64,000 bases of DNA from contig PRDH01000026.1 in assembly GCA_003345545.1 (NCBI GenBank), positions 64,001 through 128,000 of the forward strand. The letters run 5' to 3'. The DNA is from Candidatus Thorarchaeota archaeon. GTDB lineage: Archaea > Asgardarchaeota > Thorarchaeia > Thorarchaeales > Thorarchaeaceae. The notes below the pieces were generated by a model that was not told the origin of the DNA, searched no databases, and saw nothing but the letters and a program-made list of their open reading frames with translations. Numbering within the stretch: position 1 is the first letter of the stretch; the number at the start of each line of letters is the position of its first letter. Shown piece after piece: positions 46,355 through 49,442 of this stretch. Position numbers and translations under genes: made by a program.

Positions 46355-46720
46355 TTGAATAAGAAGACGCTTGGCATCCTGCTTATGACATCGCCGTACA
46401 CCTTTCAAAACAGCCACACTTTCTATGATCTGTGCAAGGCAACGCTTGAGAGAGGTTATGGCGTGAAGGTCTTCCTTTTCGTAGATGGTGTCAATAATGC
46501 GAAACTGAAACAGGAGCCTGACCCCGATAGACCAATGAATGACAAGCTCCTGGAGCTAGCCAGCTCAGGAGTGGAGTTTCAGGCTTGCGGCCTCTGTACC
46601 TCAGCTCGTGGTTTTGATCAGAGAGGTGGCGACTTCGTGCAGGGCGTGGAAGTAACAGGCCTCACTGAGTTCGCCGAACAGGTCGGTCAGGTGGACCGAT
46701 TCATCACTTTCTCATTATAG
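46355..46720 (+). CDS. dsrE: DsrE/TusD-like sulfur relay subunit
   Basis: TSPY, FLFVDGV, ACGLCTSARG. Confidence 0.85.
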   Translation: MNKKTLGILLMTSPYTFQNSHTFYDLCKATLERGYGVKVFLFVDGVNNAKLKQEPDPDRPMNDKLLELASSGVEFQACGLCTSARGFDQRGGDFVQGVEVTGLTEFAEQVGQVDRFITFSL

Positions 46721-46731
46721 GAGGGACTAAC

Positions 46732-47082
46732 ATGGATTTCGTAGAAAAGAGAGTGCTGGTTCTCATCACTAGTAAACCGTTCGGGAAGATTATTGCAGCG
46801 GAGGGCTGGCGAGCAGCAGTGGGTATGTTCGGCATGGACCATCAGTCACAGTTGCTCTTCATTGGTGATGGTGTGTACGGCCTCGTCAAGGATCAGGATA
46901 TTCAACCAATTAGAATGTTCAAGTCGACATTCGAGAGCTTTGACGGACACATCTATGCAAGCAAGAAGTCACTAGACGAACGGGACATCAATGCAAGTGA
47001 GGTCTTTGATGAAGTCGAGGTACTTGACGACGAAGGGGTTGCGAGGACATTTATTGAGAATGAAGTCATCATAACGTTCTGA
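46732..47082 (+). CDS. dsrF: DsrF/TusC-like subunit
   Basis: SKPFG, EGWR, LFIGDGVY.L.KDQ, SLDER. Confidence 0.82.
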   Translation: MDFVEKRVLVLITSKPFGKIIAAEGWRAAVGMFGMDHQSQLLFIGDGVYGLVKDQDIQPIRMFKSTFESFDGHIYASKKSLDERDINASEVFDEVEVLDDEGVARTFIENEVIITF

Positions 47083-47095
47083 GGAGGAAGCAAAT

Positions 47096-47395
47096 GTGAA
47101 GTACATGATTCTGCTCTCGAATGAATGCATGAGTATCAAAGAGGTAGTCACGGGTCTGAAAAGCAGGAATATTGAGGTCGAACTGCTGCTCCTTCAGGAC
47201 GGAGTGTATCTTGTAGACAAGGGAAACCCTGAATCCAAGGAGCTTAAGGAGCTTGGATTGAAAGTCCATGCACTCAAACATCATGTGGTTGAACGAGGAA
47301 TTGCTAGTCGCTTGGCAGTCGATGTTGACCTTGTCGATTATCCTTCGGTCGTCGACCTTCTCATGGAGAAATCCGATAAGGTAATCTCCTTGTGA
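47096..47395 (+). CDS. dsrH: DsrH/TusB-like subunit
   Basis: LLLLQDGVY, ERG, VDYPSVVDL. Confidence 0.82.
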   Translation: MKYMILLSNECMSIKEVVTGLKSRNIEVELLLLQDGVYLVDKGNPESKELKELGLKVHALKHHVVERGIASRLAVDVDLVDYPSVVDLLMEKSDKVISL

Positions 47396-47436: not shown

Positions 47437-47844
47437 CTAGGCTCTTTTCCCAAGGACAATGAGAACTTGACCCAATAGGTCGCCTGGAAGAACAGAAGCT
47501 TTGATTCGAGAACTGAACATTGACATATCGGCAGTCCTTTCCTCGGAATACTTTTTCATTTCAGTGCTACCGATACAGGCCAATTCACCCATGCCATTAG
47601 AGCCGTAGAATGACCGAAAGACTACGTGGTACGCTGGAACCTTGATAGGCTTGATAGAGACTATCTTCGTTTCACCACCTTGATACGCCACTTTTTCTGA
47701 TGCGATGACTGGCACCAATCTTGTTTTTGACCAGTCGAGTGCAACTCTGGCTTCCTCTAGTCCCTCAACTGAAGTTCTCATTCTATCCATTCCGAGACTT
47801 CCAAGGTCTTGCCCGCAGCTAATGATATAGATTTTTTCTGACAA
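47437..47844 (-). CDS. DUF22-like archaeal protein
   Basis: PVIASE, GETKIVSIKPIKVP, GDLLGQV. Confidence 0.7.
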   Translation of the reverse strand: MSEKIYIISCGQDLGSLGMDRMRTSVEGLEEARVALDWSKTRLVPVIASEKVAYQGGETKIVSIKPIKVPAYHVVFRSFYGSNGMGELACIGSTEMKKYSEERTADMSMFSSRIKASVLPGDLLGQVLIVLGKRA

Positions 47845-48250
47845 TTCGTGCCACCCTGTTTTCAGCCGGCAATGTTACTTGTCCTTGTTTCGCAACGAGA
47901 CCTCTGCCGCTTAAGTAGTTAACCAAACTGCCACATTGAATGATAGTTTGACCACTTTCGGATTGTATGATTAAGAAGATCATGAACATAATCAATTCAT
48001 GCACGTCAGAAAATTCAAGGCGACTTGTCCATTCGGGCACAAAGTGCCACGAGGAGCGCTATCCGAGCATTGTCAATATTTATTATGCTTTGATACGTGA
48101 AATATCTCAAGGCGATTTGGCCTTATCATGAAACTAACGATAACTCTATCCGAGCTAGACTGGATGAATGCAGTTGGTCACAATGAGCTTGACTCTGTGA
48201 GCGACTGTAGCTTGTTCTCAGCAATTTCCTCCGCACGTGTAGGTGGATTG

Positions 48251-48307
48251 CTTGCCTTTGCAGAGTCAGAAGGGACTACATCCTCAAAGACATCTGCAAC
48301 TGGCAAG
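48251..48307 (+). promoter_or_regulatory. Long leader hairpin upstream of the small ORF
   Basis: CTTGCC/GGCAAG, TTGCAGA/TCTGCAA, GTC/GAC, GGGA/TCCT with an A-rich internal loop. Confidence 0.5.
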
Positions 48308-48345
48308 GCGTTGATCGCTTTTGTTTCACGTCCGGAGGTGATTTA

Positions 48346-48492
48346 GTGGGCAGACATAATCACTCAAGTAGACACGAACACGAAAGGAAGAGAGGGCGAC
48401 GTCATGACTCGAACCATTCTAGAGATGACTCGAGTAGTAGTCGACTGAAGATCCTAGGCGACCAGCAAGGGCTTGGCTGGGCTGGGGCATAA
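48346..48492 (+). CDS. 48-aa His/Arg/Ser-rich small protein (absent from the ORF track)
   Basis: SD GGAGGTGA, then GTG; MGRHNHSSRHEHERKRGRRHDSNHSRDDSSSSRLKILGDQQGLGWAGA*. Confidence 0.65.
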   Translation: MGRHNHSSRHEHERKRGRRHDSNHSRDDSSSSRLKILGDQQGLGWAGA

Positions 48493-48588
48493 TATATAGT
48501 CCAATTGGGCTGATGGGAACCAGTCTTTTCCCGAACGCTCTGTATCTTGGGACTAGGAAAGAGACTGTGTTTCTTCTTATGAAAGGAC

Positions 48589-48640
48589 GCATGGGCTGCG
48601 GACCAAGCAGCCTGTGCCTCTCTTTTTCTCATCTCTTTTT
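48589..48640 (+). terminator. Hairpin plus pyrimidine tract terminator
   Basis: GCATGGGCTGC/GCAGCCTGTGC (11 bp), then CTCTCTTTTTCTCATCTCTTTTT. Confidence 0.65.
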
Positions 48641-48776
48641 ATAACCTTCACTGGGGCGTTTCGCTGATAATCAAGTTGCAAGGTTAATAACCGCTCATGA
48701 CAATCTCTACACATAAGTGTGCACGAACTACTCCACGTGAGAGGGTTGAGAGATTGCCGAACTGGGAGCTGGAAAC

Positions 48777-49442
48777 TTGATGCTTCAGTCGATTTGGGAC
48801 CAATTAGATGAGATATTTGGGCCGATTCTTCATCCGATATTTGATCCGGTTTTCGCAGCGTTGCAGGACGCTTCTCTGAGATCAATGCTTCTTTCAGCAA
48901 TCATTTGGTCATTCCTCGTTATTGGAGGGTTAGTCTTCTTAGTCTACGAGGGCCGTGTCTTTGTAGGTTTTGTCACCGGTTCTAAGATTGCGCCTCTTCC
49001 ACCTGCAGTATCTTCAAAGAGCACTAGCAAAACAAGGACGCAGTCAGAGTCAGCAAGACTCCGTAAGACGAGCGCTGAGAAATCTAAGCAGGAGGGGCAG
49101 GAGCGTGAGAGCAAGGTTCAGGCGAGCGGTGTGAGAGTCAGTGCAAAGATGAAGAAAAGCAGAGAGGCCGTCTTGCTGACTGTCACGGTGCATAATGGAA
49201 GTGACTCGAAGATTGACATGGTTGTGGTAGACATCGATCTTCCCGCCGGAGTAGACGCCGCTATTGGATCCTTCAGAATGCAGCGCCTTGGGTCTATTCT
49301 CGCAGGACAATCCGAATCCAAGGAATTTCTCCTAAACGTTCGAGGGGGCGACCTGAGTCAGATCGGGGGTTATGTGGAGTTTCTTGGGGCATCATATGAA
49401 GTGTCAAAAATCCCCCTTCCAGCAATTGAGGTGGGAACCTAA
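48777..49442 (+). CDS. Membrane protein with linker and C-terminal beta-sandwich domain
   Basis: N-terminal TM, Ser/Lys-rich linker, LTVTVHNGS..IDLPAG..LGSILAGQS. Confidence 0.7.
   Translation: MMLQSIWDQLDEIFGPILHPIFDPVFAALQDASLRSMLLSAIIWSFLVIGGLVFLVYEGRVFVGFVTGSKIAPLPPAVSSKSTSKTRTQSESARLRKTSAEKSKQEGQERESKVQASGVRVSAKMKKSREAVLLTVTVHNGSDSKIDMVVVDIDLPAGVDAAIGSFRMQRLGSILAGQSESKEFLLNVRGGDLSQIGGYVEFLGASYEVSKIPLPAIEVGT

Follow-up and report, generated by a model that had tools for sequence, protein, structure and literature searches.

We analyzed a stretch of DNA of 64,000 nucleotides (nt), called here the window, on contig C26 of a metagenome-assembled genome from an uncultured Thorarchaeota archaeon (2.69 Mb, 93% complete), and found a small gene cassette in one of its intergenic gaps. 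The cassette spans ~530 nt overall and consists of a TATA box, a conserved 5′ motif, a leader open reading frame (ORF1), a second ORF that overlaps it (ORF2), and a 3′ hairpin. As judged from comparisons with its relatives, the 48-codon ORF2 is a genuine, conserved gene, restricted to a single family of Thorarchaeota (Asgard archaea). We propose, with a probability of roughly 0.65, that the cassette is self-contained, that translation of ORF1 gates the synthesis of the ORF2 product, and that this product is a disordered, basic microprotein carrying two motifs. An earlier note on the same DNA had described here a transcription unit with a structured leader, a His/Arg-rich microprotein, and a terminator. 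Reading the sequence together with the list of ORFs, we found all of its features where it had placed them; they appear below with those added by our analysis (SD, Shine-Dalgarno sequence; aa, amino acids).

48079-48086, + strand: TATA box TTTATTAT, from sequence reading.
48108-48124, + strand: conserved motif at the predicted start of transcription, CAAGGCGA, forming a short inverted repeat, AAGGC-N6-GCCTT.
48128-48346, + strand: ORF1, leader ORF of 72 codons with a TAG stop, an open frame in all loci.
48228-48232, + strand: anti-SD tract CCUCC inside ORF1, pairing with the ORF2 SD in the predicted fold.
48251-48307, + strand: 57-nt hairpin (inverted repeat) within ORF1, surrounded by the SD/anti-SD pairing in the minimum-free-energy (MFE) and centroid folds.
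48334-48341, + strand: SD GGAGGTGA, part of an extended 9-nt tract GGAGGTGAT (48334-48342).
48346-48492, + strand: ORF2, GTG start, predicted to encode a basic microprotein of 48 aa with an N-terminal MGRHNHSS and a C-terminal GLGWAGA.
48589-48641, + strand: terminator-like element from scan and fold, an 11-bp hairpin (48589-48617) and, behind it, a CT-rich tract containing T5 runs.

We then looked for relatives of ORF2. Homologues were found at 21 loci, covering five genera of a single Thorarchaeota family; the set comprises 19 genome loci as well as metagenome loci, and 20 of the homologues form an alignment (A3), to which one metagenome locus (L066) comes as an extra. By tblastn and profile searches, four further species of the same genus carry ORF2 homologues with 92, 73, 69, and 52% identity. 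Insertions and deletions are in frame, as in a same-genus homologue that has lost seven codons, and the start codon swaps between GTG and ATG. The window copy belongs to a group termed clade A; the more divergent members comprise clade B, which is from the same genus and codes for 36 aa, and copies from four other genera of the family. Pairwise ratios of nonsynonymous to synonymous substitution rates (dN/dS, Nei-Gojobori) ranged from 0.05 to 0.40, with Fisher p values down to 1e-8, and the ORF2 frame contained 0 stops summed over the 19 genome loci, compared to 29 to 92 stops per frame in the remaining five. Upstream of the start, GGAGGTGAT is perfectly complementary, over 9 nt, to the 3′ end of the 16S rRNA from the same genome (...GGAUCACCUCCU), and GGAGGTGA or a one-base variant was present 4 nt before ORF2 at all loci. 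The conservation at 21 loci, the dN/dS values, the in-frame deletion, the start codon swaps, the sole stop-free frame, and the complementarity to 16S rRNA thus all indicate that ORF2 is a real gene. The tblastn and dN/dS checks suggested earlier were run here, and the claim of a microprotein gene with its own SD held.

The distribution of the gene is narrow. ORF2 homologues fall in three protein clusters of public protein collections, and an ORF2 profile compared with 1.84 billion cluster representatives recovered just two clusters, both from the same family. In a sample of the phylum, 15 of the 85 genomes of the family carry ORF2, and ~315 genomes from outside the family yielded a single weak match (E value of 0.008). 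One genome, G011, holds both divergent paralogues at different loci. A DNA pattern scan returned four true loci, just one of them with new sequence. Three other metagenome hits (L065, L069, and L070) were discarded as coincidental: they are bacterial ribosomal protein L24-like genes in which an MGRHNA... start lies behind GGAGGTGA. Protein-pattern scans of the metagenome and viral contigs gave no match, partly because GTG starts were not back-translated as Met. We also discarded the minus-strand ORFs of 76, 57, and 107 aa that cover the region, which are antisense frames with stops in relatives; the 107-aa one spans a junction that a radical SAM gene interrupts in genome G001.

The ORF, its SD, the promoter block, and the leader ORF recur together at 18 further genome loci and on metagenome contigs. 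A TTTAT/TTTAA box lies 22 to 24 nt upstream of the CAAGGCGA motif in 19/19 genome loci and in the metagenome loci. The motif itself is present in a (C/T)A(A)GGCGA form in 19/19 genome loci from the five genera and is the best-conserved noncoding element of the unit across genera. Its AAGGC-loop-GCCUU hairpin is kept in clade A and in g23, with one compensatory change (A-U to U-A, in ENA1), and is absent in clade B. The AGGCGAU of the motif is one mismatch away from the SD core AGGUGAU and lies 11 nt from the ORF1 ATG. From standard archaeal promoter geometry, transcription would start at ~48109, within CAAGGCGA, leaving a 5′ untranslated region of ~18 nt. On the other side of the unit, a GCAUGRG...CYCAUGC hairpin with T runs recurs 3′ of ORF2 in the clade A relatives, and most other loci have a 3′ hairpin with or without T runs; in the window, the hairpin and its T-rich tract probably terminate transcription. 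The fixed spacing of the TATA box and the recurrence of the 3′ hairpin with its T tract bear out the promoter and the terminator-like hairpin that had been read by eye. The unit stands alone, as no neighbor is common to all clades, and a regulon search found no second copy of the promoter and 5′ motif combination in the genome. Together, the promoter, the strong SD, the conserved microprotein gene, and the terminator-like hairpin support a self-contained transcription unit, as far as can be read from comparative sequence data.

We next examined the region between the 5′ motif and ORF2. The earlier note had taken it for a noncoding regulatory leader of ~240 nt, a view that proved too simple, as the region holds ORF1, whose start, openness, and end point are kept in all loci. 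ORF1 is open at every locus of the set, with a length of 48 to 72 codons, and it begins at a conserved ATG located 17 to 20 nt downstream of the 5′ motif. Its stop lies between −4 and +14 nt from the ORF2 start in 17/19 loci; in the window, the TAG of ORF1 and the GTG of ORF2 have one G in common (TAGTG). The other two forward frames across ORF1 contain 0 to 8 stops each. Dinucleotide shuffles gave a probability of 0.012 to 0.18 per locus for ORF1 to be open, and multiplying these values over ten representatives of lineages, whose independence is incomplete, yields ~1e-13. The amino acid sequence diverges fast: dN/dS ranges from 0.29 to 1.08 overall and reaches 0.85 to 1.08 in several pairs from clade B and g22. 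For the clade B pairs, the synonymous rate (dS) is lower in ORF1 (0.24 to 0.57) than in ORF2 (0.66 to 2.35), which suggests a constraint on the nucleotide sequence rather than on the protein. An ESM Atlas model of the 72-aa product showed no confident fold, with a predicted local distance difference test (pLDDT) score of 0.41. The supposed leader thus appears to be a translated ORF with a conserved start, openness, and end point and with a barely constrained product. At one locus (L054 from G357, 755-1018), ORF1 and ORF2 share the same frame and are separated by one TGA, followed at once by the GTG.

ORF1 also contains sequences that may pair with the initiation region of ORF2. The fold of 48110-48360 had an MFE z score of −2.87 relative to shuffles, and the 3′ part of the unit had a z score of −3.1. 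In the window, the ORF2 SD is predicted to pair with the CCUCC tract (48228-48232) around the 57-nt hairpin, in both the MFE and the partition-function calculations, with a probability of 1.00 that 0/40 shuffles reached; in this test, the shuffle baseline is high (~0.75) and the pairing probability is significant in some loci only. The CCUCC tract is conserved only in G001, the closest relative. The 57-nt hairpin, listed previously as part of the leader, was seen in the window and partly in G001, with the region being unalignable in more distant relatives. A different helix emerged in other clades, where RNAalifold on 11 loci (those of a 167- to 178-nt class) joined a GCCCAC-W-UCU...UUYU element in the middle of ORF1 to the SD and start codon of ORF2. 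In this helix, 89% of the cells are paired versus 46 to 59% in slid controls, six pairs show double (compensatory) changes, such as CAC/GUG to CAU/AUG, and the covariation score was matched by 0/500 shuffles. Duplex energies were better than those of shuffles in nine loci of the other clades (z of −1.2 to −3.6). Masking of the ribosome-binding site (RBS) of ORF2 is thus well supported in these members of the family, and for the window the evidence is no more than suggestive.

These folding energies and the conserved 5′ motif could also be expected from a noncoding or cis-regulatory RNA acting on the neighboring genes, with both ORFs being incidental. This is almost certainly not the case: ORF2 is conserved at the codon level and ORF1 in its openness, so that dN/dS largely refutes the idea, and the downstream genes, which differ between clades, lie beyond the terminator-like hairpin. 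In addition, we obtained no Rfam match at the gathering score in the whole window and none with an E value of ≤1 in 47845-48776. The proposal of a cis-regulatory RNA made in the earlier note thus survives in part, as a candidate RNA pairing at the ORF2 RBS (SD/anti-SD in the window and a covarying helix elsewhere), and fails as to a riboswitch or other known RNA family and a purely structural leader.

We propose the following mechanism. The TATA box at 48079-48086 would set the start of transcription at ~48109, inside CAAGGCGA, and ribosomes would translate ORF1 after the short 5′ untranslated region. The initiation region of ORF2, composed of the 9-nt SD and the GTG, coincides with the last codons of ORF1 and is predicted to be paired with a pyrimidine tract within ORF1; this tract reads CCUCC in the window, and other clades have elements of the GCCCACUUCU type. 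Because of this pairing, the output of ORF2 would depend mainly on the translation of ORF1. A ribosome moving through ORF1 would expose the site, termination at the TAGTG overlap would be followed by reinitiation, or the two would act together. Regulation is likely to take place at the conserved 5′ motif.

Several observations weigh against this mechanism. Two g23 loci end ORF1 49 nt before ORF2, so coupling there cannot use the overlap. The SD is predicted to be unpaired in G017 and G011 (probability of 0.02 to 0.06), which makes masking not universal, and the duplex energy is no better than that of shuffles in clade A (z of +0.39 for the window) or in g23. The paired cells and double changes of the masking helix were counted on the same alignment that yielded the helix. 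The strong SD of ORF2 could allow independent initiation. ORF1 dN/dS values of 0.29 to 0.46 (p of 0.003 to 0.05) in clade A and g23 imply that the ORF1 product may matter. Finally, the adaptor or nucleic acid-binding role that we assign below to the ORF2 product is based solely on composition and on the pattern of conservation.

The low dN/dS of ORF1 in clade A and g23 is also what a two-protein module would predict, in which ORF1 encodes a fast-evolving functional partner of ORF2 (a neutralizer, a chaperone, or an antitoxin-like protein) within an addiction or accessory cassette autoregulated at the start-site repeat. The stop/start overlap, the palindrome that accompanies the cassette's own promoter at the predicted start, the patchy spread among the genomes of the family, and the two divergent paralogues in G011, with their variable contexts, are compatible with such a module, as are two amino acid motifs, FDFF and QPT/SPTS, that recur in ORF1. 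We nevertheless hold this explanation to be unlikely. ORF1 evolves with a dN/dS of ~1 in clade B and g22, the QPT/SPTS motif falls on the RNA element predicted to mask the initiation site (SD and start codon) of ORF2, the ORF1 model has a low pLDDT, neither ORF had a match in Pfam, NCBIfam, or PADLOC, and neither was found on viral contigs in the pattern scans. Cofolding of the ORF1 product with ORF2 gave a score of 0.00, which counts as evidence neither way since the fold of the partner is itself uncertain. The cassette resembles type II toxin-antitoxin systems in its small overlapping bicistronic genes, its own promoter and palindrome, and its patchy spread with paralogues, and it differs from them in that no toxin or antitoxin fold or family is recognizable, the downstream product is a disordered protein of 36 to 52 aa, and the upstream gene is near neutral in half of the family.

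Gating by ORF1, the explanation that we favor, has counterparts in known systems. The coupling of coat to lysis and replicase translation in RNA phages is classical. In archaea, termination-reinitiation at overlapping stop/start pairs is established for Haloferax volcanii (PMC6728339). As in those pairs, the ORFs of the cassette are codirected, stop and start overlap or abut (clade A has TAGTG or TAATG, G362 has GTGA, and clade B has a gap of 4 nt), and the downstream SD lies inside the upstream ORF. Unlike in H. volcanii, the upstream ORF is a weakly constrained leader of 48 to 72 codons instead of a normal gene, some members of the family have an additional masking helix, and the coupling is predicted from the sequence. 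Upstream ORFs (uORFs) associated with RBS masking are known in bacteria from the uRBS cases in Sinorhizobium (PMC13285730). They share with the cassette the proposed opening of a structure over the downstream SD and start by upstream translation, together with a leader peptide whose sequence is largely irrelevant; the cassette differs by its Asgard host, its long leader, a microprotein as the candidate regulated product, and the lack of an identified stalling or sensing motif. Translational coupling and the uORF/RBS-masking architecture are thus already known, and what appears to be new is a pair of proteins, ORF1 and ORF2, that match no known family, in an Asgard host.

We then analyzed the sequence of the ORF2 product. 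In the window, this protein of 48 aa contains 6 His and 8 Arg and is strongly basic; across the family, the length varies from 36 to 52 aa. M1, S7, D39, G44, W45, and G47 are invariant in A3. The N terminus is conserved as an MGRHNxSS type, the middle part is a linker of variable length rich in Arg, Asn, Ser, and Lys, and the C terminus follows the pattern (I/L)-P-V-I-x-D-x-L-x-(L/I)-G-W-(S/A/T)-G-(A/V/I/C). AlphaFold2 run on A3 returned a mean pLDDT of 59 and zero secondary structure, in line with the disordered peptide that had been anticipated. Homology searches were not informative as to function: like its absence from the protein family databases, no match was found among PDB sequences (E value of ~0.5), the sole NCBIfam match for a homologue was FliL (E value of 0.03), which we attribute to chance, and look-alikes in the ESM Atlas were just low-complexity RS-like or unnamed clusters (0.77 to 0.82). 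A search for longer proteins bearing the ORF2 motif found none, and no protein in the genome other than ORF2 ends with GWxG. From the composition and the pattern of conservation, the ORF2 product is most likely a linear-motif adaptor, the Arg-rich middle of which would contact nucleic acid (RNA or the ribosome), with the C-terminal tail contacting a protein partner. We considered and dropped N-myristoylation, which does not fit with an Arg at position 3, and a PIP-box, for which the spacing is wrong. In G003, a 101-aa ORF with a signal-peptide- or transmembrane-like N terminus (P0004, L028:3410-3715) has its last 21 residues similar to the ORF2 C terminus (...NRLTVIQNQQELGWSGI); it is located 3.4 kb upstream of the G003 copy of ORF2 and has the appearance of a partial duplicate that is chimeric.

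The function favored in the earlier note was that of a His-rich peptide binding Ni or Zn. The clade A proteins, that of the window included, do have 5 to 6 His in their first 24 residues, with HxH and HEH patterns. Outside clade A (in clade B, g17, g22, g23, and g25), only H4 is widely kept and the other His positions are occupied by N, G, R, or S, whereas both termini are retained. No metal-handling genes are conserved beside ORF2 either. His richness being confined to one clade, metal binding does not hold as a function of the family, and we regard it as quite improbable for ORF2.

The conserved C terminus, behind a variable and "leader-like" N-terminal region, would also suit the precursor of a ribosomally synthesized and posttranslationally modified peptide (RiPP), with a GW(S/A)G core modified by a neighboring radical SAM enzyme. 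A stand-alone radical SAM gene (250 to 293 aa) is indeed found directly downstream, between the unit and the next gene, in G001, G011, and G003 and on contigs from JGI and ENA. This gene is convergent and not cotranscribed with the unit. Comparison of the window (48630-48672) with the G001 locus (L025, 6043-6822) revealed its clean absence, over ~1.15 kb, from the genome studied here. No orthologue was found elsewhere in this genome, where the best matches had 26 to 30% identity with E values of ~1e-4, and none lies beside the copies from clade B, g17, g22, g23, and g25. The radical SAM protein matched RiPP-maturase models only below threshold, together with many unrelated radical SAM models (15 to 52 bits versus cutoffs of 180 to 775), and no gene for a protease, a transporter, or a protein like a RiPP recognition element is conserved near ORF2. 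PqqA and MftA are peptide precursors that depend on radical SAM enzymes. ORF2 is like them in its very small size, in its invariant C-terminal motif, which contains an aromatic residue, and, in some genomes, in having an adjacent radical SAM gene; it is unlike them in that the enzyme is convergent, is not conserved with the peptide, is without a RiPP-maturase signature, and is missing from the genome of the window. The RiPP idea, which was also raised previously, loses its footing with an enzyme gene restricted to clade A relatives, and its probability is very low.

Another thought came from the ribosomal stalk proteins of the same genome (G000:C27:15881-16129), where aP1 ends with ...AGLGSLFG and an upstream P0-like frame ends with ...AGIGGLFG, two tails that loosely recall the ...QGLGWAGA of ORF2. 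By eye, they have in common a short, Gly-rich hydrophobic tail with an aromatic residue after acidic or polar residues, a flexible chain, and the GLG sequence. They differ in the register of the aromatic residue (GW-x-G-x versus LFG) and in the body of the protein, which is basic in ORF2 and acidic in the stalk proteins. On the strength of this resemblance, the ORF2 product might be a trans-acting mimic of the stalk tail, with a basic body on rRNA or the ribosome and an L-x-(L/I)-G-W-S-G-x tail that engages or competes for translational GTPases, a speculation to which we attach very little weight. It would make ORF2 a translation regulator gated by its leader ORF and specific to one Asgard family.

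Small proteins are largely absent from archaeal annotations and, to our knowledge, almost nothing is known of those from Asgard archaea, the prokaryotes most closely related to eukaryotes. The locus described here provides a lineage-specific family of candidate microproteins, with 21 loci and signs of strong purifying selection. Its conserved architecture (promoter, 5′ motif, open leader ORF, and predicted helix over the downstream RBS) is directly testable in heterologous systems and, if the coupling is true, would represent a clear natural case of translation gated by a uORF in archaea. The conserved pair of linear motifs may also help to find the partner of ORF2. The case further illustrates that what looks by eye like a "structured leader" can turn out to be a translated ORF, a point relevant to the annotation of similar gaps.

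Finally, we looked into the genomic context of the cassette. In the window, it sits in a 930-nt gap between a minus-strand DUF22 gene (47437-47844) and a membrane-protein/ICMT pair that begins at 48777. The clade A copies follow an ICMT-DsrE-DsrE-DsrH block and the DUF22 gene; the copies from clade B and from the other genera were found in unrelated contexts. The DsrE-DsrE-DsrH (TusBCD-like) trio at 46355-47395, followed by the divergent DUF22 gene and with ICMT-like membrane methyltransferases flanking, shows conserved synteny throughout the clade A relatives. At 47909-47927, 65 to 83 nt upstream of the start of the minus-strand DUF22 gene, there is a 19-nt motif, CTTAAGTAGTTAACCAAAC, that occurs nowhere else in the genome. 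G001, G017, and G011 have kept it, and in G003 it is found next to the DUF22 gene; this motif is probably the promoter or operator of the DUF22 gene.

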